Source of the DNA: Scenedesmus sp. PABB004
Lineage: Eukaryota
Length of the DNA: 64,000 nt
Assembly (NCBI GenBank): GCA_014905635.1
Contig: JABVCE010000027.1
Location: forward strand, 1 to 64,000
Direction of reading: 5' to 3'
Shown: positions 27,001 through 43,044 of the stretch, in pieces
Layout of the letters: every line of letters begins with the position of its first letter
How positions within the stretch are numbered: position 1 is the first letter of the stretch
Notes under the pieces: model-generated
What the model was told of the DNA's origin: nothing
What the model saw: the letters and a program-made list of their open reading frames with translations, nothing else
Databases searched by the model: none
Translations under genes and position numbers: made by a program

Positions 27001-28570
27001 CACCGACACGTCTGGCAGCAGCATCGTCGAGCCTACCAGCTACGACGAGGCCATCAACTCCCCGCAGGCGGCAGACTGGATCGCCGCCATGGCTGAGGAG
27101 CTGGCCTCTCTCCACGCCAACCGTACGTGGGAGCTGCAGACCAAGCCGCCCGGGGTCAAGGCCATTCCATGCAAGTGGGTCTTCACGCTCAAGCGCGACG
27201 CCGCCGGCAACATCGAGCGCTTCAAGGCGCGGCTGGTCATCAAGGGCTTTCACCAGCGCGCCGGCATCGACTACAACGACGTGTTCAGCCCCGTCATCAA
27301 GTACCAGACCTTCCGCGCGCTGATGGCCGCCGCGGCCGCGCACGACTGGGAGGTCAGGCACTTGGACATCAAGACTGCCTTCCTCAACGGCCACCTTGAA
27401 GAAGAGGTGTGGATGCAGCAGCCACCCGGCTCTGGTGAGCACGGCTCTGTGCTCGCCTGCCGCCTGCGGCGCTCGCTCTACGGCCTCAAGCAGGCGCCGC
27501 GCGTGTGGAACCAGCGGCTGCACGCCGAGCTGGTTGCCATGGGTTTTGCCCAGACCGCGGCTGACCCCTGCGTGTACTACCTCTACAAGGAGGGCTCCTT
27601 CATCATCCTGCTCGTTTACGTCGACGACATCCTGGTCGTCACGCCGCACGCTGACCTGGCCGCGCGCTTTACCGCGCGCCTGCTCAATGCGTTCGAGGGC
27701 CGCGACCTCGGCCCCGCGAGCTGTTTCCTCGGCATGACCATCGAGCGCAACCGCGCCGCGCGCACCATGAAGCTCTGCAACCCGAGGCTGATCTACGGGA
27801 TGCTGGAGCGCTTTGACATGGGCGACGTTAAGCCCCGCGGCCTGCCCATGCAGGCGGGCCTGCACCTCTCCAACACCAGCGGCGAGCCCCTCAACACCGA
27901 GGAGTTCCACTACTCTGCGCTGGTCGGCGCTGCTATGTACCTCGCCACCTCGCTGCGCCCCGACATCGCGCACACTGCGAGCGTGCTGGCGCGTTTCATG
28001 GCCAAGCCCACCATCGTGCACTGGCAGGCAGCCAAGGGGCTGCTGCGATACCTCGCAGGCACGGCTGAGCTGGGCATCAACTACTCGGGCGGCCCCGCGG
28101 GCCTGCACCTGGTCGGTTACACCGACGCAGACTACGCGGGCTGCCCCGACACGCGCCGCTCCACCTCCGCCTTTGTGTTCACCATGGGCGGCGGCGCTGT
28201 CTCCTGGTGCAGCCAGCGGCAGAAGACCGTCTCGGTCTCCACGGCCGAGGCTGAGTATGTGGCTGCCGCTGCCGCGGTCAAAGAGGCCCTTTGGCTGCGC
28301 AACCTGCTGCGTGAGCTGGGCTCGCGCAACGCCAACACCATCAGCATCTGGGCCGACAACCAAGCAGCCATCAAGCTGCTGCACAACCCCATCAGCTCAG
28401 CCCGCACCAAGCACATTGACGTCGCGTACTGCTTTGCGCGCGAGCGCGTCGTGCGCGGGGAGGTGAGCTTTGCCTATCTGCCAACCGCTGACATGGTCGC
28501 CGATGTGCTGACCAAAGGGCTGCCCGAGGTCAAGCACAAGGCGTGCTGCGCGGGCATGGGCATGGGCTAG
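24026..28570 (+). CDS. Copia gag-pol polyprotein, uninterrupted
   Basis: CNYCRKIGHTKDQC knuckle; WFTDSGATQH; WHARYGH..CPTC..LRSDNGGEY..NGKAER; VYVDDILV; YTDADYA..AEAEY; first ATG of ORF 23837..28570. Confidence 0.95.
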   Translation: MADPEGVALGRAGAPLAPNAADMAADQRAYVATVTRKPNPTILADDGSNFFEWQDERHGELIMHNLEAVLTDPDHPASVRIHAALKTTVSAVVKGEFHTYRTTADVWAALEEQNAEIASARTGDSLEQLATITFNPSSGMPDYIKRAKALRTKLAKVDFQVEDHIMITHLLRGLRRAPEYTFTCESIGKDLARGQITLQEVYQTLLRKNAWDGNDGDSSSSKGYAGNRALYAAAEHGGGGRPFRPAPAGAGGGGGNAASRAPKLFCNYCRKIGHTKDQCRKLKNKPGGPPGGPPGGGAPGSGPPNGGASGGAPGGSGPSGGGHARGGFSKFNGQSGKSSHGGNHGGGGNNAGLNVAWMATGVAPAPRDDREWFTDSGATQHMCCSREAFFELRPSGGVVHTASGETIEIKGIGNIFITIPNERVFALFNVLYVPELAANLLSLSKVTDMGYSVMMKGAATLIYSDDDTLPVLRAQRSANGVCSFICDYVPSLENLKSLCYEPVSLLTLHDTESECRLWHARYGHAGCDRIARIARDDLAVNFPLSASTVKDYGASHICPTCAMVKSSERPFKPTGPNNFGPGELLHTDVGDTGVRSAGGSRYYVTLIDDATGFSFFVPLASKSYVTSFLKETIPLIETATGNRVKVLRSDNGGEYNSTELHAYLATKGISHQFTTPYSPASNGKAERLNRTLRESAVAMLKAAGLPKTVWAEAFHTANFLRNVLPTDGKSKTPWELFFGTKPDASRLRVFGCRAYVHTPAALRTKLEPSAQPGVFLGYPSFGVSTTDGWRVRLDNGKTVTSRHVRFDESDLPGRARTTAGATDANLVSSPPSSPLVIGSGVPLLPADNTGAGGSLSPSSSGAAAGDAGDAGDAAGDPGDAGDTAGALCSSESGNLSSISSYSSASDSFVSAGDSFGDSGDSPGQAPSSSGHSPSSGGNAARLIPGQSLVTAPRRSARIAARSAVPVQPPAIPGQPRADAFPVVEQPQSALLTTDTSGSSIVEPTSYDEAINSPQAADWIAAMAEELASLHANRTWELQTKPPGVKAIPCKWVFTLKRDAAGNIERFKARLVIKGFHQRAGIDYNDVFSPVIKYQTFRALMAAAAAHDWEVRHLDIKTAFLNGHLEEEVWMQQPPGSGEHGSVLACRLRRSLYGLKQAPRVWNQRLHAELVAMGFAQTAADPCVYYLYKEGSFIILLVYVDDILVVTPHADLAARFTARLLNAFEGRDLGPASCFLGMTIERNRAARTMKLCNPRLIYGMLERFDMGDVKPRGLPMQAGLHLSNTSGEPLNTEEFHYSALVGAAMYLATSLRPDIAHTASVLARFMAKPTIVHWQAAKGLLRYLAGTAELGINYSGGPAGLHLVGYTDADYAGCPDTRRSTSAFVFTMGGGAVSWCSQRQKTVSVSTAEAEYVAAAAAVKEALWLRNLLRELGSRNANTISIWADNQAAIKLLHNPISSARTKHIDVAYCFARERVVRGEVSFAYLPTADMVADVLTKGLPEVKHKACCAGMGMG

Positions 28571-28985
28571 GGGCATCGCGCGTGCGTGGGAGCTGTGCAA
28601 ACCGCTTCGCGCGCTGCGTGGTGTGTGTTGGTTGATTACACTCACTTCTCTCGTGCGTGCTGCCTGCAATGCAGCCCACGTGGGAGTGTTGAAGGTCCTG
28701 GGCTGTCTGGTCTGCTTGCAGGCCAGCCCGCTGCAGCAGCAGCGCCCTCGCGCGCCCACGCGTGCGCGCGTGCGCTGCTGAGCTGTTTCAGCAAGAGTTT
28801 CACTGCGAGAGCCGGGGGCTCAGAACTCCAGTGGAGTACACACCACCGTGAGCAGAAGGGTGAACACGAGAAGTTCCCAGCCTGCCGCGTGCCCTATAAA
28901 GGCTCCGCGTGCCACCGGCGCTTGTAACGAAGCACTCTGCCGCACCCAATCAGCGCTCTCGCGATCACAACACCACCGCGCAACA

Positions 28986-29663
28986 CGCGCTGCGCCGCCG
29001 AGGTCCGCCGCCGGCGGCCGCGCCGCGCCGCGGGCCGCGCGCCGCCCGCGCGCGCGCCGCTCGGCGGCGCCGCGGCGCAGCGCTGCCGGGCGCCGTTTCC
29101 CCTGCCCCGCCGCCCCTGCGGAGCGGAGGTGCGGGGCTCCAACGGGCTGCCCCGGCACGCGCTGCGCCGCCGAGGTCCGCCGCCGGCGGCCGCGCCGCGC
29201 CGCGGGCCGCGCGCCGCCCGCGCGCGCGCCGCTCGGCGGCGCCGCGGCGCAGCGCTGCCGGGCGCCGTTTCCCCTGCCCCGCCGCCCCTGCGGAGCGGAG
29301 GTGCGGGGCTCCAACGGGCTGCCCCGGCACGCGCTGCGCCGCCGAGGTCCGCCGCCGGCGGCCGCGCCGCGCCGCGGGCCGCGCGCCGCCCGCGCGCGCG
29401 CCGCTCGGCGGCGCCGCGGCGCGGCGATGCCGTGCGCCGTTTCCCCTGCCCCGCCGCCCCTGCGGAGCGGAGGTGCGCGGCTCCAACAGGCTGCCCGGCC
29501 ACGGGCTGCGCCGCCGAGGTGCGCCGCCGGCGGCCGCGCCGCGCCGCGGGCCGCGCGCCGCCCGCGCGCGCGCCGCTCGGCGGCGCCGCGGCGCAGCGCT
29601 GCCGGGCGCCGTTTCCCCTGCCCCGCCGCCCCTGCGGAGCGGAGGTGCGGGGCTCCAACGGGC
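28986..29663 (+). repeat. 172-bp satellite, segment 6 (contains one divergent monomer)
   Basis: About 4 monomers; substitutions clustered at ~29420-29521. Confidence 0.95.
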
Positions 29664-29798
29664 TTTTATTTTTTGTTTTTTGTTACAATGGGTGAGCTTT
29701 TTTCAGTGGGCTGCCCCTGGGCCTCGGTCCTTGTCTGGTCACCCATTGTAACAAAAAAAAAAAAAAAAAAAAGGCCCAGGGGCAGCCCACTGAAAAAA
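29664..29798. mobile_element. LINE 3' stub (minus) interrupted by a second LINE 3' stub (plus, 29694-29772)
   Basis: T-tail-TTACAATGGGTGA | GCTTTTTTCAGTGGG...CATTGTAAC-poly(A) | GGCCCAGGGGCAGCCCACTGAAAAAA. Confidence 0.88.
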
Positions 29799-30154
29799 GC
29801 TCCAACGGGCTGCCCCGGCACGCGCTGCGCCGCCGAGGTCCGCCGCCGGCGGCCGCGCCGCGCCGCGGGCCGCGCGCCGCCCGCGCGCGCGCCGCTCGGC
29901 GGCGCCGCGGCGCAGCGCTGCCGGGCGCCGTTTCCCCTGCCCCGCCGCCCCTGCGGAGCGGAGGTGCGGGGCTCCAACGGGCTGCCCCGGCACGCGCTGC
30001 GCCGCCGAGGTCCGCCGCCGGCGGCCGCGCCGCGCCGCGGGCCGCGCGCCGCCCGCGCGCGCGCCGCTCGGCGGCGCCGCGGCGCAGCGCTGCCGGGCGC
30101 CGTTTCCCCTGCCCCGCCGCCCCTGCGGAGCGGAGGTGCGGGGCTCCAACGGGC
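29799..30154 (+). repeat. 172-bp satellite, segment 7
   Basis: About 2 monomers. Confidence 0.95.
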
Positions 30155-30206
30155 TTTTTTTTTTTGTTTTTTGTTACAATGGGTGACCAGACAAGGACCG
30201 AGGCCC
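30155..30206 (-). mobile_element. LINE 3' stub, tail-proximal part (split by the gypsy insertion; remainder at 43020-43044)
   Basis: Same stub as 22779-22852; continues as GCCCAGGGGCAGCCCACTGAAAAAA after 43019. Confidence 0.9.
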
Positions 30207-30406
30207 TGACGCACCAGATGAGCGACCCGTCGGATGAGCGCTGAGCGCCCCCGCTGCTGCTGCTCTGCCCTCACGCAACACACACCTGCGAGGCGCACAC
30301 ACGCGGCAGTTGACCCCAACTGCCCAGTTCAGGCCGCACCCGCTGGCTGTAGCGCGTGCGCGCAGTGACCAGGCCTGAGCGCTGCGGCCAGTCCAGCCGC
30401 TGCACA
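30207..30406 (-). repeat. Repeat A, terminal copy (200 bp)
   Basis: TGACGCACCAGATG...CCGCTGCACA; same as 30960-31159. Confidence 0.95.
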
Positions 30407-30410
30407 GGAT

Positions 30411-30957
30411 AGGGATTGCCCCACCCGGGATGCTCGCGGTCGGCTGCCCGACCCAGCACTCTGCTCTGGCGCGCCGCGGTCGCGATCGCTTCCTTTGCTT
30501 GCTGGCTCCCCCTGTGGCGTGCCCAGTGCTCGCGTCGACCTCTGCCCGCTCGCGGCGTGCGGCTGGGACTGTCGGGCGCGGTGGTTACCGTTGGCTGGTG
30601 CTCGACTGGGTTCTGGGGGGCGCTCGTCCCTCGCGGGGCGCGCCTAAGTTCACTCAGCGAGCGCGCAGCCAAGGGCGAACCCTGCCCCGTCAGCAAGGTC
30701 GCACTGGTTGCGAATCGGTGTGTAACCCCCACTCGGCCAGCACGCCTTGCAATGGCGCCTGCCGCTGCACAAAAGGCCTCAGACTAGGCCCCGCCACACA
30801 CAGCAGAGAGCACGGTCGCTGCCGTGCGCGGTCACCCGCGCTGCAGTACATGCCCCGGTGACCCCGCTGCTGCGCGCGCATGCAAGCCCACCAGTGCTCA
30901 GTCCGGCCGGCCCCAGGCCTAGCCTCCATCGGGCAGCAGCCCCCATCGGTGCTGACA
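30411..30957 (-). repeat. Repeat B, internal copy (547 bp)
   Basis: AGGGATTGCCCCACCC...GGTGCTGACA; same as 42473-43019. Confidence 0.95.
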
Positions 30958-30959
30958 GC

Positions 30960-31159
30960 TGACGCACCAGATGAGCGACCCGTCGGATGAGCGCTGAGCG
31001 CCCCCGCTGCTGCTGCTCTGCCCTCACGCAACACACACCTGCGAGGCGCACACACGCGGCAGTTGACCCCAACTGCCCAGTTCAGGCCGCACCCGCTGGC
31101 TGTAGCGCGTGCGCGCAGTGACCAGGCCTGAGCGCTGCGGCCAGTCCAGCCGCTGCACA
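30960..31159 (-). repeat. Repeat A, internal copy (200 bp)
   Basis: Separated from repeat B by the 2-bp spacer GC. Confidence 0.95.
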
Positions 31160-31473
31160 ACCCCCCAGCAATCACGCACGAGGTGAGGAGGCGGGATTGC
31201 TCAAAACGCGGGTGCTGGCAGCAGCGCTCGCAATGCTGCCAAGAGCACAACACACACATGACAAAGGCCCTGCAGCGGCGGCACGCACGCTGCTGGAACC
31301 AGGCACACCAGGCATTGGCACACGCACACCGCGCGGGGCAGATTCACCCGCTCCCCGCACATGCACATGCGCGCGCCCACGCGCCTGATCCCTCGCTGCA
31401 GTTGCCAACTGCCCCAACTGCCAGAGCTGGGCAGGCTGCAGCGCCCGACCGAAACTGTCCCCACTGCAGCTGC

Positions 31474-32658
31474 TCAGCGCAGCCTCTTGAGCTCAGACAT
31501 CTGGCTCGCCATGACAAAGGCCATCTGCTCAAACGTCTTCAAGTGACTGTTGTGCTGCTGCAGCATCTGCTGCACCTGCTCCTCCGTATACATCTGCGGT
31601 GCTGCCGCCTGCGTCTGCGGCGCCAGCTGCAGCATCTGCGCGGGCTGCGCCGGCAGGGCAACAAGCTGGTTCTGCCCCTGGCTGCTCTGCTCCTGCTGGC
31701 TGACCTGCTGCGGCGGTGGCGCACCGCCCTGACGCTGCCTCTGCACACTGCGCTGCGTCTGGTCACTGCTCTGGACAAAGTCACGCTGCAGCCGCCGCTG
31801 CTGCTCGCGCTGCGCGTATTCCATCGGCTGGCTGCCCTGCGCGCGTCTGCCGCGCTGCTGCGGCTCAGAGCGCCGCGGCGCCTGGCGGTCCGCGGGTCTG
31901 CCCTGGCGCTGGCCACTGGGCTCCTGGCTGCGCCGCGGGCGCTCCGTCCAGCGCCGAACGCCCGCTGGGAAGCAAAGGAGCTGGCTGAAAAGCCGATGCT
32001 GCCGCGACGTGATCTCACGGCAGTTGCTGCACTCCTTTGTGTCATGCGCGCAGGGCCCGTGCAGCTCGCACCAGGTGCGCCGGCCCTTGAAGCAGGCGTG
32101 CTCCTTGTAGCTGCCGCCTGTCTGCTGCTCCAGCAGCTCCCGCGCGGCCTGTGGTCCGCTGACCCGGCCGGCCCGGTAGTCCTCCAGCAGCTGCCAGGCT
32201 TTGGCCTCATACGGCTGCTGCTGGCTCTGGGCGCCAAGCTGGCTGTTGCGCCCCGAGCGCTCACCCTGCGCCGCAGGGCTGCACCCCCGCGCGGAGCGCT
32301 CTGCAGGTCCCTGGTCGGGGTCGTGAGGGCGCCGGCCGTGGCGGTTGCGGCTGCGGCTCCTGCTCCGGTTGCCTCGCCACGTCTGCAGGTCCGGCTGCTC
32401 CTCTCCCACGTCTTGAGGTGGCGGGCGGTCCGTGTGCTTGGAGCTCCCGCCGCTGTTCTGGCTGTGGCTGCAGTTGCGGTCGCTCGGCTCCTCCGCTGCC
32501 TCCGGGCTGGCCACATAGCCATCGTCGCCGCCGCTGCCGAGGCGTGCCAGCAGCTGTGCCGACAGGCCCCGCTGCTCATCGTTGCTCGTCCCCGGGGCGG
32601 CTTCCGGCATCTCCATCTCCTCATCCCCAAAGTCCAGCAGCTCCTCTTCACCCTCCAT
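31474..32658 (-). CDS. Extra ORF3 of the gypsy element: low-complexity protein with a Cx2Hx4Hx4C-type zinc knuckle
   Basis: ATG at 32658 (MEGEEELLDF), acidic N-terminus, WCELHGPCAHDTKEC, Q-rich C-terminus; open for ~394 codons. Confidence 0.65.
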   Translation of the reverse strand: MEGEEELLDFGDEEMEMPEAAPGTSNDEQRGLSAQLLARLGSGGDDGYVASPEAAEEPSDRNCSHSQNSGGSSKHTDRPPPQDVGEEQPDLQTWRGNRSRSRSRNRHGRRPHDPDQGPAERSARGCSPAAQGERSGRNSQLGAQSQQQPYEAKAWQLLEDYRAGRVSGPQAARELLEQQTGGSYKEHACFKGRRTWCELHGPCAHDTKECSNCREITSRQHRLFSQLLCFPAGVRRWTERPRRSQEPSGQRQGRPADRQAPRRSEPQQRGRRAQGSQPMEYAQREQQRRLQRDFVQSSDQTQRSVQRQRQGGAPPPQQVSQQEQSSQGQNQLVALPAQPAQMLQLAPQTQAAAPQMYTEEQVQQMLQQHNSHLKTFEQMAFVMASQMSELKRLR

Positions 32659-32800
32659 TGCCTGAGCAGCGGCAGTGTCGGCACGGGAGGGCAGTGTCAG
32701 CACTCGCCGGTTTGGCGGCTTGGCACACAGCGGACTGACGCGTGAGCACCCCCCAACCCCCAGCCAGGCCTCCATCTCTCCCGGTGCGGCATCAGCCTGA

Positions 32801-35800
32801 TCAGTGGCTGGGTCCTGCGGTCGTGTCGCCAAAGGCGCCGTCGCGTGGCAAGCGCACGCCTGCGGGCAGGAGCGTGTCCTGCGGGGTGAGGATCTTGGTG
32901 AGCTCCGCTGTGGCATAGCGGTACACGTCCCCATCCTCCCAGCACACATCAAAGTACGCCGGCCGACGCTGCTCGCCCATGAAGTGCGCGCGGCCCCAGA
33001 AGAGCCTGCGCTGGCCCGTCTGCCGATCCACAAAGTGCTGGCGCACCAGCCTGCCGTGCAGCTGCTTGGCTGCCTCGTCACGCTCGCGCATTGCGCGGTC
33101 TGGGTAGAGGTTCGCCCCCTCGTCGCGCTGCTCCCGCGCCTGGCGCTGGCGCACTGCGGCCTGCAGCTGCTGCTGCGTCACGCCGTCAGCGACGCACCTC
33201 GGGCACATCCAGTCGCCCTCGGGCACTTGATCCAGGCTCGGCTCCAGGCAGTGTTGGTGCCAGCCCGCGTCACAGTGATCGCACAGCAGCATCTGGTTCG
33301 CTGTGTGTGACTCCAGGTGCCCGCACGCCTCGCAGCTCGCCTCCTGCGGCTGCTCTGCCAGGGCTGGGTCAAGTGTGGGGTCGATCCCTAGCAAGTGGCA
33401 GGGCGCACACTGTGAAATGTGGCGGTCGATCTTGCGTCCGCAGCGGCCCTGCAGCATGAGGCGGCCGCTGGGCCTGACCTCCAGCACGCGCAGAATCACC
33501 GGGCGCGCGCGTGGCTGCAGCGCGCTGTACGCGTGAGTGTACGCGACATACACAAAATCACCTTGTTTGAACGTGGGCGTTCTTGGCTGGATCTCCCCGC
33601 TTCGCAGTCGCGCGTAGCGCAGCGTGTCTCGCTGCTGCGCGATCTCCAGGTTCGCCATGGCCTCAGGTGCCAGGCGCTCGACCAGCTGCCTGCGTGCGGC
33701 CAAGTCGGCGGCGGCCAGGTCAGGTGCGTCGAGGTCCAGCGGCTGGCTCAGCCGCTCCATCACTGCAGGCGGCACAATTGGCGCGCGTGCATAGAGCAGC
33801 TCATATGGCGTGAGGCCGGTGCTGCGCTGCGGGCTGCAGCGGTAGCCCAGCAGCAGCCAGGGCACGTGCATGTCCCAGTCACGCACTGCCTGCCGCTGCA
33901 GGCACGTTTTCTCCAGGGCTGCCTTCACAATATGAACAGATTTCTCCGCCGCGCCATTGGCAGCGGGATGGTTGGCTGAAGTGGGGCGCGAGTCAATGAG
34001 GCAGTCCAGCAGCAGCTGCTGGAAAGCACCCTGCCACTCGCCCCCGCGGTCGTGCACGACCTCGGCACACGCGCCAAAACGCGCGAGCACGTTGTGCAGG
34101 AAAGCATAGGCAGTGCACTCTGGCGTTTTCTCCGCAATAGGAATGGCCTCAATGTTCTTACTAAAGTGCTCCACACACACCAGGATGTAGCGGTGCCCCC
34201 GCTCTGAGCGCGGGAAAGGCCCGCACAGGTCCACGCCCCAGCGGTACATCATGCCGCGGATGGGCAGCGGCTGCAGCTCAGCTGGGCGCGCTGTAAAAGC
34301 TGCGCGGACCTGCCCGCACTCAGGGCAGCCGCCCACCAGCGAAGCCGCGTCGGCCAGCAGGCCGTGCCACCAGTGCGTGTGGTGCGCGAGTGCCGCAGTG
34401 CGGCGCACGCCAAAGTGCCCGCACCTGTCGTGGAAGCTCTTGAGCAGCTCCCGCCGTTCAGCCGGAGGGGGCACCACACGCGTGCTGTTGTCGGGCATGA
34501 GTCGCAGCAACTGCCCGCCCTGCCAGCGGTAGTACGCGCGGCGCTTGGCCACTCTGCAGCGCTCAGCCGCGTTTGTGCCCGCTGGGAAGTCTCCGTTCTG
34601 CAGCAGGTGCAGGGCGGTTGCGTCGGCCCAGATGTCACTGCTGCTGCCCTGCAGGGCGTCCTGCTCCGCTGCTGCCGCCAGCGCACATAGCACGCCGTAC
34701 GGCTTGCTCCCAGCAGCCTTGCTGGCTCCCATCTCGGGCACAAGTCCTGCCACTGGTTGTGTGCTGCCATGCTCCGCCCAGGCCCGGGCAATCGCCCAGA
34801 GTCCCGCCAGGCAGGCTGCATCGATCGCCTCGCCCAGGGCACGGCGGCGATCTCTGTCCGACACGCCAGGCGCGGCTGTTGCGCCCTCCGCATAGCCGAG
34901 CGCGCGCTCACGCTCGACTGTCAGGGGCTGGTCCCACGTGCCGTCTGCTGCGATCACGCTGCCCGGCTTGCCTGGCCTGAAGCTGTAGCTGTTGGGGTGC
35001 GCCATCAGCGTTGGCCAGGCTGCCATGGGCTGCCCTGGCACATTGCAGGGGTAGCGTGGTGGGAAATCAGGGTGCTTGACCGGCTGCTCCCGCCGCCCAG
35101 GCTCCAGTATTTGTGAGACCGTGAGGCCCGGCGGCCTCTGCACCTGCGCCGCAGCAGCGGCCAGTTGGGCAGGTGAGCATGCGTTCGTCCAAAACGCTCG
35201 CACGCGGTGCGCGCGGCTCCCAAACTGCGCTGCGTCCAGCACTGTCGGCTGGCCCAGCGCGTCACAAATCACTTTGAAGTCCTCCTCCGCAATGCGGTTG
35301 TCGCTGTGCCATTGCACTGGCACGTTCTCCAGCAGGTAGCAGGGCGGCTGGTCTGGTTGCAGCTGCTGCAGCGTGCCGATCAGGCGCACAATCTCGGTGA
35401 GCAGGCCTGATCGCGCCCCGCGCAGGCCCGCACCCGACCCAGCTGTGCTGAGGTCCTGGCAGGGCCATCCGCCCACCACGAGCCAGGGTTGGCGTTGCAG
35501 CGATGCTCCTTCTTGCACCAGGTGCCATGTCGTGATCTCGCGCACGTCTTGCGGGAGAGAGAACATGCCCTGCAGGGCAGACGTGGGCAGCAGGTCAGGA
35601 TACAGCGCTGTTAGCTGCTGCACTCTGTGCGCTGCTATCGCCCGGCTGGTGGGGTTGATGTCCACATACAGGTACTTGTGGATGCGTTTCCCTCCACGCA
35701 GGGCCATCTCCAGGCCCGCACACAACCCCCCAAACGCGTCCACAAGGACCAGGCCTTGCGTCGCTGCCGGAAAGAAACTCGCCGCCACGCTGGCGGTGGC

Positions 35801-37930
35801 CAGACCTGTGGCCCGGCGCACCCCAAATGCATCACGCGGCCCCGCGTGCGCACCTCCCGCGGGCGCGGCGGCTTGAGCCTGTGCTGCCGGCAGGTGTGGC
35901 ACCGCCGCTTGCACCCATGCGCGCGCCGAGCGCGCCAGTTGCCTTGCTGCCAGCTGGGCCGCGTAGGAGGCGTCATCCGGCAGTTGGTCCGCCGCGTCTG
36001 TGAAGGAGCCGTTATTGCCTGCCAGCAACGCGGCGGCGTCGGGCAGGAAAGAGTCAAGCCGGGTCTCACCAGCCGTCGCGCGCTCCAGAAGCTGTGCCTG
36101 CAGCTGCGGCTGGCTGGGCGGCGCCAGGGCTGTGCCCAGCAGCAGCGCCCCTGCCGCGGTGCTGTTCTGCGGCTTGGCCGCTGCGCGCTGCTGCTCCAGG
36201 AGCTCCCACGTGTACTCCGTCGTGTCCGGCGTGCCATCAGCCTGCAGCACTGCCGGCTGCAGCTGATACATGGGCTCCCTTGTGCGGTCCAAGCGCGCAC
36301 CTGCCGCGTCCACCGTTGTGGCTCGTGGGTGCCTGCTTGGCACATCTGCCACGTTGCTTTTGCCGGCCTTGTGGACCAGGGTGAACTCGTAGTCCTGCAG
36401 CGACAGCACCCAGCGCGCGTGCTGCCCTGTGGGCTCCTTGGCTGCGAGTAGCCAGAGCAGCGGGCGGTGGTCGGTGTGCAGGTGGAAGTGGGGCCCCTGC
36501 AGGTATGGGCGGAACGTCTTGACGCCCCATACTGCCGCCAGCGCCTCACCTTTCCAGGCCTCGTACCGCCGCTCGTGCTCGTTGAGCGAGCGAGAGGCAC
36601 AGGCGACCATGTACTCCCCCCCGTTCTGGTCTCTCTGGTTGAGCACGGCAGAGATGCCGTGAGGGCTCCAGTCCGTATACAGGTGGTATGGCCGTGAGGG
36701 GTCTGGGTGGCGCAGCACCGCAGTGGGTGAGGTGAGCGCATCGCGCAGCCTGTCAAAGGCAGCCGCCTGCTCTGGTCCCCACACGAAGCGCGTGCCTTTC
36801 TTGAGCAGTGCGTTGAGAGGCGCCGCAATAGCCGAGTACTCAGGCACATAGCAGCGATAAAAGCCCAGCACGCCCAGGTAGCTGCGCACTTGATCAGCCG
36901 AGGTTGGCGGCGCCAGCTCGCGCATTGCGGCGACCTTCGCCTGGTCAGGCTGCATGCCACTCTCACTGACCAGGTGGCCCAGGAAGGGCATGGAGTCGCT
37001 GCACAGCACCGTTTTGGATGGATGCGCGCGCAGCCCGACCGTCCGGAAACGGCCAAACAGCAGGCGCAGGCACCTCAGGTGGTCCTCAAATGTCTTAGTG
37101 TAGATACATATGTCATCCACAAAGACCACAGCAAAGTCTTTGAGCCCTGCTGCGCGCAGTTCGTGTTCCATTATTCTCTGGAAGATGGCGGTGGCGTTCA
37201 CGTGCCCAAAGGGCAGGCGCGTGAAGCTGTACAGCCTGCCTTCCCACCAGAAGCACGCGTAGCGCTGTGACGCCTCATCCAGCGGGATGTTGAAAAACCC
37301 GGACCTGCAGTCGACTTTGCTGCGCCACGTAGCACCTGCCATTCGCCGGAACAGCTCCTCTGGCAGAGGCAGTTTGTACTTGTCAATCACGGCGTTGGCG
37401 TTGATCGCCCGCCCATCGTAGCAGAACCTCTTGTCAGTGAGGGTGCCATCAGGCGCTCGCTTCGCCGCCATGACGATGGGGCAGGCATGTGTCATGCCAT
37501 GTGTGCTGACCTCGCGGATCACGCCCGCGTCAAGCATCTCCCGCACTTTCTCCCTTCCAATGTCCAGGTCCCTGGGGCTGGGCTTGCGCTCCGGGCAGAT
37601 GATGGGCTCCTCTGTCTTCATGCGCAGCTGCGCAGGGCCCAGCTCGCCCTTGTAGCCCACCAAGTCCTTCATCTCATACGCGAACACATCTTTGTGCTCG
37701 AGCAGCACCTGCTGCAACTGCTCTTTCTGCTCTGCTGTGAGCTCTGGGTGGTTCCCATGTATCCATTTGTGCTCTGGGTCCTGTTCCCAGCGGTCAGAGA
37801 GCTCCTCTGTCTCCTGCTCCCCTCCCGCAGTGTACGCCTCCAGCGGCGTCTGGCCAATCGCCGCTGCTGCAGGGTCCCGATCCTTGCCCCTCTGGCTCTC
37901 ACGCCTGCGGCTGCCTGCCGCCGACGCGAA
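32801..37930 (-). CDS. Gypsy pol: RT, RNase H, C5 cytosine DNA methyltransferase, integrase, PHD, Tudor-like (5' limit set at the inferred frameshift site)
   Basis: LPFGHVNA, FVDDICIY; YTDWS..EALAAVW..TDHRPL; DAFGG, GGWPCQDLS, ENV, RVRAFW; H..GHFG..CPEC, VDLCGP, HDRGGEW, NGAAEK; CEAC..CDHC..H..C..WMCPRC. Confidence 0.93.
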   Translation of the reverse strand, partial: FASAAGSRRRESQRGKDRDPAAAAIGQTPLEAYTAGGEQETEELSDRWEQDPEHKWIHGNHPELTAEQKEQLQQVLLEHKDVFAYEMKDLVGYKGELGPAQLRMKTEEPIICPERKPSPRDLDIGREKVREMLDAGVIREVSTHGMTHACPIVMAAKRAPDGTLTDKRFCYDGRAINANAVIDKYKLPLPEELFRRMAGATWRSKVDCRSGFFNIPLDEASQRYACFWWEGRLYSFTRLPFGHVNATAIFQRIMEHELRAAGLKDFAVVFVDDICIYTKTFEDHLRCLRLLFGRFRTVGLRAHPSKTVLCSDSMPFLGHLVSESGMQPDQAKVAAMRELAPPTSADQVRSYLGVLGFYRCYVPEYSAIAAPLNALLKKGTRFVWGPEQAAAFDRLRDALTSPTAVLRHPDPSRPYHLYTDWSPHGISAVLNQRDQNGGEYMVACASRSLNEHERRYEAWKGEALAAVWGVKTFRPYLQGPHFHLHTDHRPLLWLLAAKEPTGQHARWVLSLQDYEFTLVHKAGKSNVADVPSRHPRATTVDAAGARLDRTREPMYQLQPAVLQADGTPDTTEYTWELLEQQRAAAKPQNSTAAGALLLGTALAPPSQPQLQAQLLERATAGETRLDSFLPDAAALLAGNNGSFTDAADQLPDDASYAAQLAARQLARSARAWVQAAVPHLPAAQAQAAAPAGGAHAGPRDAFGVRRATGLATASVAASFFPAATQGLVLVDAFGGLCAGLEMALRGGKRIHKYLYVDINPTSRAIAAHRVQQLTALYPDLLPTSALQGMFSLPQDVREITTWHLVQEGASLQRQPWLVVGGWPCQDLSTAGSGAGLRGARSGLLTEIVRLIGTLQQLQPDQPPCYLLENVPVQWHSDNRIAEEDFKVICDALGQPTVLDAAQFGSRAHRVRAFWTNACSPAQLAAAAAQVQRPPGLTVSQILEPGRREQPVKHPDFPPRYPCNVPGQPMAAWPTLMAHPNSYSFRPGKPGSVIAADGTWDQPLTVERERALGYAEGATAAPGVSDRDRRRALGEAIDAACLAGLWAIARAWAEHGSTQPVAGLVPEMGASKAAGSKPYGVLCALAAAAEQDALQGSSSDIWADATALHLLQNGDFPAGTNAAERCRVAKRRAYYRWQGGQLLRLMPDNSTRVVPPPAERRELLKSFHDRCGHFGVRRTAALAHHTHWWHGLLADAASLVGGCPECGQVRAAFTARPAELQPLPIRGMMYRWGVDLCGPFPRSERGHRYILVCVEHFSKNIEAIPIAEKTPECTAYAFLHNVLARFGACAEVVHDRGGEWQGAFQQLLLDCLIDSRPTSANHPAANGAAEKSVHIVKAALEKTCLQRQAVRDWDMHVPWLLLGYRCSPQRSTGLTPYELLYARAPIVPPAVMERLSQPLDLDAPDLAAADLAARRQLVERLAPEAMANLEIAQQRDTLRYARLRSGEIQPRTPTFKQGDFVYVAYTHAYSALQPRARPVILRVLEVRPSGRLMLQGRCGRKIDRHISQCAPCHLLGIDPTLDPALAEQPQEASCEACGHLESHTANQMLLCDHCDAGWHQHCLEPSLDQVPEGDWMCPRCVADGVTQQQLQAAVRQRQAREQRDEGANLYPDRAMRERDEAAKQLHGRLVRQHFVDRQTGQRRLFWGRAHFMGEQRRPAYFDVCWEDGDVYRYATAELTKILTPQDTLLPAGVRLPRDGAFGDTTAGPSH

Positions 37931-40900
37931 AGCTGTTGGTTTGCAGCTGCTGTGCTGCTCCCCATGCCTGCGCCTGCGCCTCTGCGTGCGAGGGCGGCAG
38001 TGGCGCGCGTGTGTCGGCCCACGGCATGCGCAGTGCGCTGCTGCCTGGCGGCGCCAGGTGCGTGCTGAGCTGGCCAGCGGCGTGCCCCGTGGCCGCAGCG
38101 CCGGCGATCAGCAGCAGCAGCAGCGCGCACTGCAGGGGCAGCGCCTTACGCACAAAGCCGCGCGTGAAGGTGCGACGCCACATCTTGAACTTTCTCGGCG
38201 CATTGCACTCTGTGCCGTCAGGCGCGATGGGCGGCCTGAGGCAGCGCACATCGCCCGTCTCCATAGAACGGTAGCGCCAGCGCCCGATGCGCACGTAGAG
38301 GTCTGGTGCGCGCGCCCAGGGCACGTGCTGCTTCAGCCCTGCGCGCACGTGGCGCCAGGTGCCGCTCAGCCGGGCTCGCAGCCCGCTGCTCAGGCAGCAC
38401 GCGAGAACGCGCGGCACCCAGAGCGCGGCTGCGCAGAGCCAGCCCACCTTGTGGAGGATGCTGCGCACTGCCGTGTAGATCAGCGGCAGTCTGGGCGCAG
38501 GGCGGGGCCGGTGCCAGGTGTGGCTCAGGAGCTTGGTGGCGCTGGCGTAGGCCTCCTCCGCGCCCTGGCCCACCACGCCCAGCGCGAGCACCGCGCCCGC
38601 GCTGATGAGGGGCGCCTGGCTGAGGAGCATCAGGACCGGCAGCACCAGCAGCACCAGCAGCGCGTCCCGCGCGGTGTTCAGCGCCTTGAGCGCGCGCTGC
38701 AGCCAGCTGCAGCTGGGCTCGCTTTTGGCGTGGCCCTGCTCCTCGCCCTCGTTCTCCTCTGCGCGCAGCGTGCAGGCCGGCATCGGCTCCGTGCATGCGG
38801 CGGGCGTGCGTTCCGCCGGCTCGCTGCGCGCGGTGAGCCGCACCTGCATGCAGGCGAGCTTCGCCCCGTTGGTGGCCGGGCGCCCGCTGATGTAGTAGAA
38901 CTGGCTGTTGAACGGCAGCACGAAGCCGCTCACTTTGTCGATGATGTCCCGCCCCAGCACAGCGCCGTACATGCCGTACGCGCTTGGGCTGTCCACGACC
39001 AGGAAGCCGTCTGGCAGCTCCAGGCTGACCTCGTCCTCGGTGCCGTGGCCCAGGATGACCGCCACCGGCTCAGTGCGGCCGATGATGCTGGTCGTGGGCT
39101 GGCCCTCGATCGTGCTGACTGGTGGCAGCTGCTCCGGCAGCAGCCGGTACACGTGCAGGCCCATCTCCTGCGCCAGGCGCTGGTTGATGATAGAGGGGAC
39201 GCAGCCAGAGTCGGTGGCGGTGTTCTGCATCTGCATCACGCGCCCGCCGCTGGTGCGCACCATGGGAAGCTGCGGGCCATCAAACTTGATCATCGTCTGG
39301 CGCTGCCCTGTGCTGCGCTTGAACGCTGCCATCTGCTGCTCAAAGCTCGTGCTGCTGCCTGCGACGGCGTGCAGCTCCTCCAGCGCCTGCGCGCTTCTGC
39401 CATCCTCAGCCAGCTGCGCCAGCGCCACGGGCGCGTTGGTCGCTGCTGCGCGCGGCTGGCTGTTCTCCATCTCCTGGCCCTGCATCATCTCCTGGATCTT
39501 GCCCAGCTGGCTGGCTGCCAGCGGCTTCTCGCTCTCAAACACGATCTTGACCTTGAACTGCGGCGGCACCGGTTCGGCAGACGGCCTGCTCAGGGCCGGC
39601 TCCATGCCGCTGCTCAGCGGCGGCGCCGTGCGCGGCTGCGCGTTGTCCGCCGGCAGGAAGCTGCAGGGCATCACGCTCCTGCGCGCGCCGCGCGTGGCCG
39701 CGCCTGCGCTCAGCGAGTGCTCACCGATCTCGCAGAGCGAGCCCGCCGGCATGTGCTGCCAGTTGCTCAGGCTGCTGTTCTCCCAGCGCTCGCTGCCCTG
39801 CGGCTGGTGCAGCGGCGGGGTCTCATACTCGGGCCAGAGGGCCGCCGCGGCGACTGGCCCGCGCGCCTGCTGCTGGCGCTGGTGCTGCGCGGGCGTGGAG
39901 CCCCGCGCGCCGCTCTCACCAGACCAGGCCGGCTGGATCTTCAGCTCCTTGCAGCGCCTGAGGTAGTGCTGCACCGCGCCGGGCTCAGCGTTCCTGCCAG
40001 GCGCCCAGTTGGCAGGCGCCTTGTTGGGCTGGTCGTACCAGCAGACTGCGTGGCCTGGCCCAAAGCGGCAGTAGGGGCAGGGCGCGGGCGCGCGGTTGGT
40101 GCCACCGCTCGTGTGCGGGCGCAGCTCTGGCGGCGGCAGCGCGCGCTGCTGCGCCGCGCCCGCCGGCTGCATCGGCCGCGCCTGCTGCCAGTGGTGGTGG
40201 CCGCGCGGCTGGCTGTAGCCGTAGTACGACTGCCGCGTGTCGTAGCCGTCGGCGTAGGCGCCTGCGGGCGCGCTGTAGGGCATGTCAGCGCGCACGTCCT
40301 GGCTCGCGAAGGCAGCGCCCGCCAGGGCGTGGTGCGGCGCGCTGGCGGCCCAGTTGCCCGGGCGCTGCCCTGCGCCGCGCCGATCTCCCACCTGCCTTGG
40401 GCCCTGCACCTCGCGCGAGCCGCCGCCGCGCTCCTTGCTGCCCTGCACCTTGGCGTCCATGGAGCCGAGGAAATCGTGCCCCGCCTTGCGGAAGAGGCTG
40501 GCGCGCAGCGTGGACTGCGTGACTGCCTGGTGCTTCTCCGCGCACTCCAGCACGTTGTCCAGCGTCAGGCTGCCCAGGCCCTGCGCGATCACCTGCTGCT
40601 GCACCATGGCCCTGCAGGCGCCGCTGCTCAGCCCTGCGATGAACACCTGCGCCGCGCTGTCGGGCATGATGTGCAGCTCGCAGCGCAGCGTCCGGACGGC
40701 CTGCCGGATCCGCTGCGCGTACTCCTGCAGCGTGGCGTCGCCCTGCTGCATGGTGAAGAACTCGCTCACCTGCTCCTGCGTGGCGATGCAGAAGCGCAGC
40801 TCCATGATCAGCAGCAGCCGCTCCACCACGTACAGCACTGGCGTCCAGCGCTTGCCGGGCTGGTCGCCCGTGGTGGTGTAGATGACGGTCGCGCTGGCCT

Positions 40901-41834
40901 TGAGCTCCTGTGCGGGCGTGGGAGCGGGCGGTGCCGTTGGCGGCGCCGCTGGCGCGGGCCTGCCGGCCGCCTCGCCGCTCGGCTCGCCCGCGTGCTCGCC
41001 GCCCTTCGGGGGGCACGCGTCAGCAGCGCCCCGGTCCTGTTTCACCTGGACGCCCGTCGGCCTGATGGGCGGGACGTCGCCCATTCGCACCTGGTCCATC
41101 TCCATCTGGCTGACCACGAGGCCCCGCTCCAGCGCCTTGTCGAGGACGTCCCCGACGCGGTCTGTGTAGGCCTCGTGCAGCATCTTGTTGTGCCGCTCCT
41201 GGTCCTGTCTCGGGCCGAGCGCCAGCCGCACCTCCTCGGCAGAGGGGCGCGCCCAGAGGTAGCGCCCGTTCTCTGCCGCCAGGCCGTGGTCGGCGAGCGC
41301 CGCGCGGATCTTGAGGAGCACCTGGGCGGGCTCGCTCTCCGGCTCGACCTTCACCAGCAGCTGGTCCACGAACTCCGCGAGCGACATCACGGCGCGCCCG
41401 CTCTGCGTGCTCTTGCTGTGCGCGGCGCCGATCGCCGCCCGCGCCTCGTTGATCCACTGCTGCGCCGGCTTGCCCGGCTGCCCCGCCCAGAGCTGCTCAC
41501 CGTTGTGGCTGCCCGCCAGCTTGCGGGCGCTGAAGCGCGGCCCGCGCGGCGGGCTGCCGCGCCCGAGCTGGCCGTAGCTGCTGAAGTTGCGCAGCATGTC
41601 GTCCTCGTCGCTGTCGCTGCCGCAGTCGCTGCCGCTCTCTGCGGCGGGGTCCTGCGGGGCAGGCGGGTCAGCAGGGCTGGGCTGCCACGCGCCGCTCGGC
41701 GCGCCGCCCGTGCCCTGCTGGGCTGGCCGTAGGGCTGCTGCCCTGGCCTGTTGCGCTATGCGCTGGTAGGTGTCGCTGAGACTGCTGCCCTGGGGCAGCC
41801 GTGCGCTGCTGCGCGTTCGCCCCCAGCCGCTCAC
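37899..41834 (-). CDS. Gypsy gag-protease ORF with hydrophobic C-terminal extension; true start uncertain
   Basis: FFTMQQGDATLQEYAQRIR (gag-like); CPYCRFGPGHAVC; protease ATDSGC..AVLGRDII; 1311 open codons. Confidence 0.8.
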   Translation of the reverse strand: MSGWGRTRSSARLPQGSSLSDTYQRIAQQARAAALRPAQQGTGGAPSGAWQPSPADPPAPQDPAAESGSDCGSDSDEDDMLRNFSSYGQLGRGSPPRGPRFSARKLAGSHNGEQLWAGQPGKPAQQWINEARAAIGAAHSKSTQSGRAVMSLAEFVDQLLVKVEPESEPAQVLLKIRAALADHGLAAENGRYLWARPSAEEVRLALGPRQDQERHNKMLHEAYTDRVGDVLDKALERGLVVSQMEMDQVRMGDVPPIRPTGVQVKQDRGAADACPPKGGEHAGEPSGEAAGRPAPAAPPTAPPAPTPAQELKASATVIYTTTGDQPGKRWTPVLYVVERLLLIMELRFCIATQEQVSEFFTMQQGDATLQEYAQRIRQAVRTLRCELHIMPDSAAQVFIAGLSSGACRAMVQQQVIAQGLGSLTLDNVLECAEKHQAVTQSTLRASLFRKAGHDFLGSMDAKVQGSKERGGGSREVQGPRQVGDRRGAGQRPGNWAASAPHHALAGAAFASQDVRADMPYSAPAGAYADGYDTRQSYYGYSQPRGHHHWQQARPMQPAGAAQQRALPPPELRPHTSGGTNRAPAPCPYCRFGPGHAVCWYDQPNKAPANWAPGRNAEPGAVQHYLRRCKELKIQPAWSGESGARGSTPAQHQRQQQARGPVAAAALWPEYETPPLHQPQGSERWENSSLSNWQHMPAGSLCEIGEHSLSAGAATRGARRSVMPCSFLPADNAQPRTAPPLSSGMEPALSRPSAEPVPPQFKVKIVFESEKPLAASQLGKIQEMMQGQEMENSQPRAAATNAPVALAQLAEDGRSAQALEELHAVAGSSTSFEQQMAAFKRSTGQRQTMIKFDGPQLPMVRTSGGRVMQMQNTATDSGCVPSIINQRLAQEMGLHVYRLLPEQLPPVSTIEGQPTTSIIGRTEPVAVILGHGTEDEVSLELPDGFLVVDSPSAYGMYGAVLGRDIIDKVSGFVLPFNSQFYYISGRPATNGAKLACMQVRLTARSEPAERTPAACTEPMPACTLRAEENEGEEQGHAKSEPSCSWLQRALKALNTARDALLVLLVLPVLMLLSQAPLISAGAVLALGVVGQGAEEAYASATKLLSHTWHRPRPAPRLPLIYTAVRSILHKVGWLCAAALWVPRVLACCLSSGLRARLSGTWRHVRAGLKQHVPWARAPDLYVRIGRWRYRSMETGDVRCLRPPIAPDGTECNAPRKFKMWRRTFTRGFVRKALPLQCALLLLLIAGAAATGHAAGQLSTHLAPPGSSALRMPWADTRAPLPPSHAEAQAQAWGAAQQLQTNSFRVGGRQPQA

Positions 41835-42054
41835 CGTGGGTGATTGCGCTGGGCCTCCTTGCGGGGCTCAGCGGTGGCCACGGTGGGCAGGCTCCTGGCC
41901 CTCTGGGCCGCTTGTTCCGGCTTTGCGGCCCCTTGGGCTTCTCCCAGGCGGGGCCTGTGGCCTTGGCTCCGTGGGCTGGGCGCGGTGCGCGGCTCCCTTG
42001 TTCCCTTTTGGGCACGGCGCCTGGCCGGTTCGCGCGCCCTCTGGGCGCTGTGCT

Positions 42055-42298
42055 CCTGCTCCGCTCGGCCCTCTGGGCGCGAGCTGGCTCCTGCTCCGCT
42101 CGGCCCTGTGGGCTCGAGCTGGCTCCGCTCCGCTCGGCCCTGTGGGCTCGAGCTGGCTCCTGCTCCGCTCGGCCCTGTGGGCTCGAGCTGGCTCCGCTCC
42201 GCTCGGCCCTGTGGGCTCGAGCTGGCTCCTGCTCCGCTCGGCCCTCTGGGCTCGAGCTGGCTCCGCTCCGCTCGGCCCTGTGGGCTCGAGCTAGCTCC
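42055..42298. repeat. ~34-35 bp tandem repeat (~7 copies) in the gypsy 5' leader
   Basis: GCTCCGCTCGGCCCTGTGGGCTCGAGCTGGCTCC(T) units. Confidence 0.9.
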
Positions 42299-42472
42299 CG
42301 CGCCCTTTGGGCGTCTCCTCACGTGTTGGTCGGGCGATCCACGTCGGCCGCCACGTGCGGCTCGACGGCTTGTCGCCCGGCCTGGCTGGGCGCTCCTGCG
42401 CCCTCCTTGCTCTCCCCCGAGCGCAATGCGCCGCGCGGCGCGGCGCTTACCTGAGCAGCGGCCCCCCAGAAC

Positions 42473-43019
42473 AGGGATTGCCCCACCCGGGATGCTCGCG
42501 GTCGGCTGCCCGACCCAGCACTCTGCTCTGGCGCGCCGCGGTCGCGATCGCTTCCTTTGCTTGCTGGCTCCCCCTGTGGCGTGCCCAGTGCTCGCGTCGA
42601 CCTCTGCCCGCTCGCGGCGTGCGGCTGGGACTGTCGGGCGCGGTGGTTACCGTTGGCTGGTGCTCGACTGGGTTCTGGGGGGCGCTCGTCCCTCGCGGGG
42701 CGCGCCTAAGTTCACTCAGCGAGCGCGCAGCCAAGGGCGAACCCTGCCCCGTCAGCAAGGTCGCACTGGTTGCGAATCGGTGTGTAACCCCCACTCGGCC
42801 AGCACGCCTTGCAATGGCGCCTGCCGCTGCACAAAAGGCCTCAGACTAGGCCCCGCCACACACAGCAGAGAGCACGGTCGCTGCCGTGCGCGGTCACCCG
42901 CGCTGCAGTACATGCCCCGGTGACCCCGCTGCTGCGCGCGCATGCAAGCCCACCAGTGCTCAGTCCGGCCGGCCCCAGGCCTAGCCTCCATCGGGCAGCA
43001 GCCCCCATCGGTGCTGACA
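42473..43019 (-). repeat. Repeat B, terminal (5') copy (547 bp)
   Basis: Same length and apparently same sequence as 30411-30957; no repeat A next to it. Confidence 0.95.
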
Positions 43020-43044
43020 GCCCAGGGGCAGCCCACTGAAAAAA

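Follow-up and report, generated by a model that had tools for sequence, protein, structure and literature searches.

We found that a retrotransposon of the chlorophyte Scenedesmus sp. PABB004 encodes, inside its Pol polyprotein, a C5 cytosine methyltransferase domain that resembles DNMT3. The element lies in a 64,000-nucleotide stretch of DNA (contig JABVCE010000027.1, positions 1 to 64,000 of the forward strand), which at its full length is called the window here. That a DNA methyltransferase (DNMT) domain of this identity is present in Pol we regard as nearly certain. The element that carries it is very probably an intact, recently inserted and autonomous retrotransposon of the Ty3/gypsy type whose DNMT3-like domain keeps its catalytic motifs. 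Its Pol runs in the order reverse transcriptase (RT), RNase H, DNMT3-like C5 methyltransferase, integrase, PHD finger and small beta-barrel. We refer to the clade with the layout RT, RNase H, DNMT, integrase and PHD, to which this element belongs, as type A, and to the clade of streptophyte algae that includes the published element KnitGypsy-Dnmt3 as type B. Coordinates refer to the window and residue numbers to the pol frame; the positions of all features are collected in Table 1.

A DNMT3-like domain in the Pol frame

A preliminary description of this DNA, made from its letters alone, had proposed that a C5 cytosine methyltransferase is fused in frame inside pol. We found that all seven motif strings quoted for it lie in one stop-free frame and in the stated order. 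They are encoded on the minus strand, which the description had left unstated, from window position 35743 to 34820. A plus-strand reading of 34790-35760 was discarded, as that translation is full of stops. The position between RNase H and integrase was also upheld, with Pfam placing RNase H at residues 443-573 and integrase at residues 1213-1380.

C5 methyltransferases are described by a set of named motifs, including I (FxGxG-like), IV (PC, with the nucleophilic Cys), VI (ENV), VIII (RxR), IX and X. In the pol frame, motif I reads VDAFGG from residue 789 (35726-35743, minus strand; AFGG at 791-794), and the string assigned to motif II, YVDIN, starts at residue 814. Motif IV, GGWPCQDLS, starts at residue 879 (35447-35473, minus strand), with PCQ at 882-884 and the codon of the catalytic Cys883 at 35459-35461 on the same strand. 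Motif VI is LLENV from residue 925 (ENV at 927-929), and motif VIII is AHRVRAFWTN from residue 966 (RVR at 968-970). Two further strings, ERERALGY at residue 1065 and RRALGEAID at residue 1088 (34820-34846, minus strand), were assigned to their counterparts in DNMT3A by alignment to that protein. The motif order of DRM enzymes is circularly permuted, unlike that of DNMT3; along the present frame the order is I, IV, VI, VIII, IX, X, which is not circularly permuted.

Since long open frames say little on either strand at 64-89% GC, we built the case on profiles, fold and homologues. The Pfam profile DNA_methylase (PF00145) matched the domain scanned alone at 46.5 bits (E 4.3e-12, cut-off 22), well outside what chance would produce, and the whole Pol at 43.2 bits (residues 876-973). 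This match spans only positions 62-159 of the 324 in the profile, corresponding to motifs IV-VIII, and the part of the domain beyond them is supported by the fold and by the family alignment. An AlphaFold2 model, for which an alignment of 41 relatives (A1) was the input, had a predicted local distance difference test score (pLDDT) of 95.0 and a predicted template modelling score (pTM) of 0.92. Among the matches listed by Foldseek for this model, all were catalytic domains of DNMT3A, DNMT3B or DNMT3C, with a best E of 1.1e-17, template modelling scores on the target of 0.82-0.85, and about 22% identity over 326-341 alignment columns.

Sequence comparison with all PDB sequences gave a similar ranking. 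A phmmer search returned 33 matches at E<=1, of which the first 26 were DNMT3A, 3C and 3B (best E 5.6e-8). With the A1 profile, DNMT3A (72.4 bits, 3.4e-19) ranked above 3C and 3B, followed by DRM (46 bits) and HhaI (34 bits), and DNMT1 was absent from the 51 PDB matches of this profile. Judged by sequence and by predicted fold, the domain is a DNMT3-like C5 methyltransferase, in the sense that DNMT3 is its nearest relative among the DNMT classes with solved structures. The profile and structure searches thus agree with the proposed identity.

An intact gypsy-type element with split repeats

The Pfam matches in Pol follow the gypsy-type order, namely RVT_1, RT_RNaseH, RT_RNaseH_2, Integrase_H2C2 and rve; the last of these (residues 1288-1380) scored 31.6 bits, slightly below its cut-off of 32.6. 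The element is bounded by split repeats, which in the element sense are arranged as A-internal-B-A-B, and not by two identical long terminal repeats (LTRs). The internal junction of A and B reads ...CA + GC + TG..., which is an end-to-start junction. The repeats are 99.6-100% identical. Because the two copies of A differ at 2 of 555 positions and those of B at none (201/201 identical), the insertion is young. The termini are TG...CA (TGACGC...CTGACA) and are accompanied by a 4-bp duplication, GCCC, as expected of a DDE integrase; the duplication was judged against a paralogous site at 22745-22908 and not against a true empty allele.

Distribution and conservation of type A elements

A search with the DNMT region found 126 proteins at E<=1e-3 (among proteins of 972-3094 aa). 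In 1.84 billion cluster representatives there were 4261 matches at E<=1e-3 and 309 at E<=1e-30. Among the 297 proteins that we stored, 123 have the layout RT, RNase H, DNMT, integrase and PHD, and most of the others are truncations of the same order; the DNMT lies before RT in 18. Named hosts of the window layout are Monoraphidium, Scenedesmus, Haematococcus and Cymbomonas, and all named members are chlorophytes. The Haematococcus lacustris protein has a strong DNMT, scoring 434 bits. Because the layout is common in public data, the window element is one member of a large family and not a singular case.

In this family the catalytic residues are nearly invariant. In a MAFFT alignment of 252 stored proteins, Gly880 and Cys883 were each found in 250/250 and Glu927 in 251/251, followed by Asn928 (248/251), Arg970 (250/252), Arg968 (249/252) and Gly794 (222/224). 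The residue preceding Cys883 is Glu in 124 proteins and Pro in 112, and the window copy has Pro. At columns that are at least 90% conserved, the window copy agrees with the consensus in 54 of 55, the sole exception being Asp790 in place of Glu. Median identities to the window copy among 104 relatives of full length were 46.8% (DNMT), 41.7% (RT), 54.9% (RNase H), 50.6% (integrase) and 49.0% (PHD), and the linker between RNase H and the DNMT was detectable in only 47 of them. At the level of sequence, these comparisons showed a DNMT whose conservation within the clade is similar to that of RT and integrase. The preliminary description had named a degenerate domain, unconstrained across copies, as the outcome that would speak against it; what we found is a domain constrained across its relatives, with near-invariant catalytic residues and an identity comparable to that of RT and integrase.

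A sample drawn independently of the DNMT was obtained by an RT-RNase H search, which added 54 further proteins, with Haematococcus lacustris, Tetrabaena socialis and Chlamydomonas reinhardtii among the named hosts. Of these, 45 carry the DNMT region, 6 end before integrase and 3 (P0323, P0330 and P0341) read RT, RNase H, integrase and PHD, with 213-229 aa between RNase H and integrase.

We also scanned 10 longer relatives in which the DNMT was the only part of the type A layout and detected no PWWP, BAH or chromo domain in them. Six have an aspartic-protease or zinc-knuckle match before the DNMT, three have the DNMT only and one has neither. When metagenome contigs were scanned with the family alignment, two of 79 loci were family-like, namely L002 and L001, the latter matching along the full domain at 43% identity, and the remaining loci were weak partial matches. 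No direct repeats were found around L001 on its 11-kb contig. Among the 80 loci kept from a scan of prokaryote genomes there were no family members; all were partial matches, at 24-55% identity and with a best E of 2e-13.

Trees, decay and deletion of the domain

Of the 297 proteins, 265 cover 85% or more of the domain, and 76 of these form the rows of the DNMT tree, namely 18 chosen and 32 random type A proteins, all 16 well-covered type B proteins and the 10 long DNMT-only proteins; Klebsormidium nitens was excluded for low coverage. It divided the layouts 50 against 26 on a branch with a Shimodaira-Hasegawa-like approximate likelihood ratio test (SH-aLRT) value of 100, and the window fell on the type A side. 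An RT-RNase H tree of 61 rows, which includes K. nitens, gave the division 47 against 14 and a larger one of 75 rows 61 against 14, each with an SH-aLRT value of 100 and with the window again on the type A side. All three trees are quick searches without bootstraps, and the first two were built without DNMT-less or host outgroups. On these sequence trees, type A is the sister of type B. They show one change of layout, and neither which layout is older nor a single capture of the domain follows from them.

In Chlamydomonas reinhardtii, the protein CHLRE_09g398141v5 (P0345) has, between its RNase H and integrase, a DNMT-like region that is decayed. Three proteins of Tetrabaena socialis (P0303, P0327 and P0337) and one further protein (P0314) retain the same region, and the scores against the family profile range from 55 to 158 bits. 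This region of the volvocine elements resembles a pseudo-methyltransferase domain that has gone unrecognised in a model alga.

The larger RT-RNase H tree, rooted on type B (75 rows, with 54 of 157 catalytic-type rows sampled and P0124 excluded), placed the DNMT-less clade and two decayed lineages among catalytic-type elements. Since they are nested within catalytic-type lineages, the presence of the DNMT looks ancestral in type A, and its loss or decay secondary, as far as the sequences indicate.

Putative chromatin readers behind integrase

Residues 1585-1768 were modelled with 24 relatives (A2) at a pLDDT of 90.1, and the model contains a PHD finger, two helices and a five-stranded barrel. 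The best structural matches of the PHD finger were those of Arabidopsis ORC1b (Z 9.3, 43% identity) and ATXR5 (Z 8.6), followed by BAZ2A/B, BHC80 and DPF. All of these fingers have been solved with unmodified histone H3. From the model, we infer that the finger behind integrase resembles readers of H3 unmodified at lysine 4 (H3K4).

The barrel gave weak structural matches, to Spindlin-4 (Z 5.3) and to the tudor domain of SETDB1 (Z 4.4), which possibly reflect only a common arrangement. The Pfam profile PTM_DIR17_Tudor (cut-off 27.2) scored 23.8 bits in P0083; two out of another 21 relatives reached 18.1 and 18.4 bits, and the window copy gave no match. With profile scores under the cut-off and low Z values, we dropped a firm Tudor assignment and call the barrel possibly Tudor-like. 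By BLASTP, the C-terminal module was recovered in 86 family proteins. Two proteins, P0271 and P0294, combine a DNMT before RT with a C-terminal PHD, so the PHD is not exclusive to the layout of the window element.

Genomic setting and other reading frames

Much of the first 30 kb of the window consists of a tandem satellite of 172 bp. Its GC content is about 89%, it has 24-25 CpG per 100 bp and copies that are 95-100% identical, and at least four retroelements break it. The array looks like one of the centromere or heterochromatin type. An intact Copia-type element lies inside it at 23224-28985 on the plus strand, with a 1580-codon frame that contains a zinc knuckle, integrase and RT, and with LTRs of 299 bp (23224-23522 and 28687-28985) that are 99.7% identical. 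A second Copia-type pol lies between satellite blocks at 2839-6420 on the plus strand (RVT_2 209.8 bits, with rve, SH3_retrovirus and gag_pre-integrs), as does an RVT_1-bearing frame of unclassified type at 14518-16950 on the minus strand (102.1 bits). At 29664-29799 and at 22779-22831, one and the same insert foreign to the satellite disrupts its register; a T-rich or A-rich run forms part of this insert, as does the stretch ...GGTGACCAGACAAGGACCGAGG. The edge of one such insert is exactly where the DNMT element has landed.

The part of the window from 44000 to 64000 is about 80% GC throughout, with a CpG observed/expected ratio of 1.18 and open frames on both strands. The only matches there were an XPA_C exon of about 45 aa (43.6 bits, in a minus-strand frame at 51494-53848) and a weak cNMP_binding match. 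The XPA_C exon, the one clearly host-like match, is too short to point to the host, and genes of the host are difficult to discern in this part.

Upstream of pol in the element sense is a gag/protease-like frame. It matched Retrotrans_gag at 17.6 bits, a weak score under the cut-off of 24.1, and no protease profile of Pfam matched it. A D-S-G stretch and a Cys/His knuckle were spotted in it by eye, and Asp_protease_2 is present in relatives. A public gene model of 3225 aa, P0124, unites the gag-like frame, pol and the downstream frame; its N-terminal part matches the upstream frame at 95.9% over 1192 alignment columns. P0124 represents this very locus in a public assembly or else a further copy. 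Pol is in the +1 frame relative to gag, the two overlapping at 37899-38107 on the minus strand, and P0124 bridges the overlap by skipping about 112 nt. The element may join the two frames by a +1 frameshift or by a splice. The downstream open frame, ORF3, is of low complexity with one Cys/His-rich stretch; it had no Pfam match, and its one match in the stored set of family proteins was P0124. Given the GC content, ORF3 may not be a real gene.

Table 1. Features of the DNMT-bearing retrotransposon and its surroundings in the window.
Feature	Window position	Residues of pol frame	Strand	Basis or remark
Whole retrotransposon, 12.8 kb	30207..43019		-	Repeat map; flanks aligned to uninterrupted paralogous site 22745-22908
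Target-site duplication GCCC	30203..30206 and 43020-43023		.	Left flank matches to 22831, right flank from 22828
Repeat A, 5' copy in element sense	42467..43019		-	555 nt, 2 mismatches to 30405-30959
3' block B-A-B	30207..31159		-	B 30207-30406, A 30405-30959, B 30959-31159
Upstream gag/protease-like frame, 1322 codons	37899..41867, first Met 41597		-	Open frame
Pol frame, 1768 codons	38107..32801		-	Stop-free; +1 relative to gag frame, overlap of about 208 nt
Reverse transcriptase	36974..37417	231-378	-	Pfam RVT_1 82.4 bits
RNase H	36389..36781	443-573	-	Pfam RT_RNaseH 113.8 bits, RT_RNaseH_2 104.9 bits
DNMT3-like C5 cytosine methyltransferase domain	34748..35800	770-1120	-	Motifs I-X lie within 34820-35743
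Integrase, zinc-binding and catalytic core	33968..34471	1213-1380	-	Pfam Integrase_H2C2 45.3 bits (1213-1268)
PHD finger behind integrase	33194..33334	1592-1638	-	Pfam PHD 37-38 bits
Conserved C-terminal small beta-barrel, possibly Tudor-like	32906..33058	about 1684-1734	-	Model pLDDT about 95
Downstream open frame, ORF3	31477..32667		-	99.7% match to tail of P0124
Satellite blocks	1-984, 6804-12333, 17563-23225, 28984-30206, 43020-43207			172-bp tandem repeats

Possible roles of the domain

The best supported inference about function is that the domain would be an active, S-adenosylmethionine-dependent de novo cytosine methyltransferase, as its conserved motifs and predicted fold suggest. By analogy with the DIRS-borne DNMT3 domain in yeast, it would most plausibly methylate CpG. 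Second in support is where it may act: because it is made as part of Pol, the enzyme could modify the element's own cDNA, or the DNA at and around a new insertion; in the preliminary description, the cDNA or the satellite would be the target. The least supported step is that the PHD finger might direct integration, by tethering, towards chromatin outside promoters in which H3K4 is unmethylated. The chromodomain of chromoviruses is an analogue for such tethering, and the pairing of ADD and catalytic domain in host DNMT3 is an analogue for a scheme in which unmethylated H3K4 is read, the element integrates and the site is methylated. We offer this model of integration-coupled methylation tentatively, as one that falls a little short of an even chance. 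A broader proposal is that type A is an ancient, green-alga-wide lineage in which a de novo methyltransferase adjoins an integrase that reads unmodified histone H3, so that the element writes 5-methylcytosine at its own insertion site on landing, silencing or camouflaging itself, with a capture that predates or crosses the split of chlorophytes and streptophytes and with independent decay, for example in Chlamydomonas and Tetrabaena. This we consider doubtful.

Several observations weigh against an active enzyme that marks its own insertions, or against parts of the case made above. Most family proteins were gathered by their similarity to the DNMT, which inflates the apparent conservation of this domain. 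Its affinity to DNMT3 is a ranking against solved structures, and a clade such as the 'ChloroDNMTs' (PMC12344493), which has no solved structure, falls outside this comparison. P0345, P0303, P0327, P0337 and P0314 lack the PCQ cysteine, ENV and RxR; because some relatives have decayed and one clade has deleted the domain, catalysis is dispensable for such elements. When the KnitGypsy-Dnmt3 domain was isolated and expressed in yeast, no methylation was detectable, a result that its authors regarded as inconclusive (PMC5890265). With respect to the satellite, the insertion of the DNMT element there is a single event, and since two Copia elements and one RT-bearing element share the array, the site may reflect tolerance of insertions and not targeting. 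For the element the CpG observed/expected ratio was 0.88, while the satellite had 1.25 and the Copia elements 1.07-1.26; at best, this hints faintly at decay driven by methylation.

Among other explanations, the one that survives best is that the enzyme is active on element RNA, RNA:DNA or single-stranded cDNA within the particle, for instance as a self-mark or as protection. Lying within Pol between RNase H and integrase, the domain would be packaged with the replication machinery, and de Mendoza et al. raised RNA methylation for a LINE-borne (long interspersed nuclear element) DNMT and cDNA methylation for a DIRS-borne one (PMC5890265). However, the fold and motifs of the window domain are those of the double-stranded-DNA enzymes DNMT3A/B/C, and the sequence contains no pointer to RNA, so we think this explanation unlikely.

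Somewhat less probable still is that the domain is a non-catalytic module, serving in DNA binding or tethering, or, in the manner of DNMT3L, as a partner by which methyltransferases of the host are recruited or modulated. It would fit the five relatives that retain a DNMT-like region without the catalytic Cys, ENV and RxR, as well as the lack of detectable methylation by the KnitGypsy-Dnmt3 domain in yeast (PMC5890265). On the other hand, the window copy and nearly all relatives keep the catalytic residues (Cys in 250/250, Glu in 251/251 and 54 of 55 conserved columns), which is unexpected for a purely structural module, and the decayed forms are secondary, since the RT-RNase H tree places them within lineages of the catalytic type. 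Finally, an assembly chimera, a nested insertion or the chance read-through of a host DNMT exon is hardly credible: long open frames do run on both strands throughout the window at 64-89% GC, but 123 of 297 proteins, of many different origins, repeat this order of domains, the DNMT is present in 45 of the 54 proteins chosen without reference to it, the DNMT and RT-RNase H trees share their top split, and the independent gene model P0124 is 99.7% identical to pol over 1684 aa.

A transposon with its own de novo methyltransferase is a paradox, because cytosine methylation is the main weapon of the host against transposons. In the sources available to us, a transposon-borne enzyme of this kind is documented in few lineages only. 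The present elements extend the green-lineage case beyond one streptophyte alga, to a second and differently built clade that includes young, apparently mobile copies such as the window element. Public data from chlorophytes and metagenomes hold type A in abundance, with its proteins labelled 'hypothetical protein' or 'site-specific DNA-cytosine methylase', and counts of DNMTs in algal genomes will be inflated by it. With catalytic, decayed and deleted versions on one tree serving as natural controls, the benefit of DNA methylation to a transposon becomes testable.

Comparison with published elements

The closest published system is KnitGypsy-Dnmt3 of K. nitens, a gypsy-type element 'with the repeat structure of a DIRS' whose Pol contains a Dnmt3-like domain and for which a Ka/Ks ratio (nonsynonymous to synonymous substitution rates) below 0.2 was reported (de Mendoza et al. 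2018, PMC5890265). The K. nitens relatives were grouped with Dnmt3 in that study (PMC5890265). As described there, it shares with the window element a non-rearranged Dnmt3-like DNMT inside the Pol frame and split repeats of the form A-coding-B-A-B (PMC5890265). The window DNMT is homologous to that of KFL_009030040 (P0288), a protein of K. nitens, with 37% identity over 265 aa (E 8e-44). In P0288, however, the DNMT precedes RT (Pfam residues 312-369, with RT at 770) and no PHD was detected, and the Closterium proteins (P0261) likewise have the DNMT before RT and no PHD. In the window element the DNMT follows RNase H, and a PHD finger and beta-barrel stand behind integrase. Among named hosts, the layout with the DNMT before RT is found in streptophyte algae (Klebsormidium and Closterium), whereas the window layout is found in chlorophytes.

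The preliminary description had cited dinoflagellate and charophyte precedents for retrotransposon-borne DNMTs, and these are correct (PMC5890265). Its suggestion that the combination with split repeats looks new was not supported. The same DIRS-like repeats are reported on the Klebsormidium gypsy-type element (PMC5890265, Fig. 4c legend), and PHD fingers in chlorophyte gypsy elements are already in print (Gypsy-7a_cRei, PMC9940879). Gypsy-7a_cRei of Chlamydomonas is, like the window element, a chlorophyte gypsy element, with a PHD in Gag-Pol for which a role in steering insertion was proposed; the text available of that paper names no methyltransferase for it (PMC9940879). The C. reinhardtii protein P0345 falls within the type A clade in the RT-RNase H tree, having only its decayed DNMT-like region.

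Other elements share a captured cytosine methyltransferase with the window element, some of them together with a chromatin reader. The dinoflagellate elements SymbioDIRS-Dnmt3 and SymbioLINE-Dnmt are of the DIRS and LINE types, unlike the gypsy-type window element; the DIRS-borne DNMT3 domain was reported to establish de novo CG methylation in yeast, and self-methylation of cDNA was proposed for it (PMC5890265). EpiLTRs are retrotransposons of Cymbomonas and Euglena with a captured cytosine methyltransferase (bioRxiv 10.64898/2026.05.21.726589). As that preprint describes them, they differ from the window element in having the DNMT at the 3' end of pol, sister to DNMT4, and in carrying a chromodomain and an adenine methylase of the Dam type. 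Type A proteins (P0110 and P0215), a family distinct from EpiLTRs, are likewise encoded by Cymbomonas.

Host DNMT3A, DNMT3B and DNMT3C provide the best sequence and structure matches to the element's domain and have motifs I, IV, VI, VIII, IX and X in the same order. They share only about 22% identity with it, the element has a longer stretch from motif VIII to motif IX, and its domain is embedded in a retrotransposon polyprotein with no PWWP or ADD adjoining it.

In the portion available, a 2023 survey did not find DNMT3 in green-alga transcriptomes. The cytosine methylases borne by transposable elements that are listed in the accessible text of the 2026 preprint are those of Symbiodiniaceae, 'streptophytes (Gypsy-DNMT3)' and EpiLTRs (bioRxiv 10.64898/2026.05.21.726589). 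Full-text searches of the literature, which did not extend to Repbase, Dfam, theses or closed supplements, gave no description of the type A layout or of its spread in chlorophytes. Collectively, retrotransposon-borne DNMTs, split repeats on a Klebsormidium element and PHD fingers in Chlamydomonas gypsy elements are already known. Compared with the published KnitGypsy-Dnmt3, what differs in type A, as read from its sequences, is the placement of the DNMT after RNase H rather than before RT, co-occurring with a PHD finger behind integrase.

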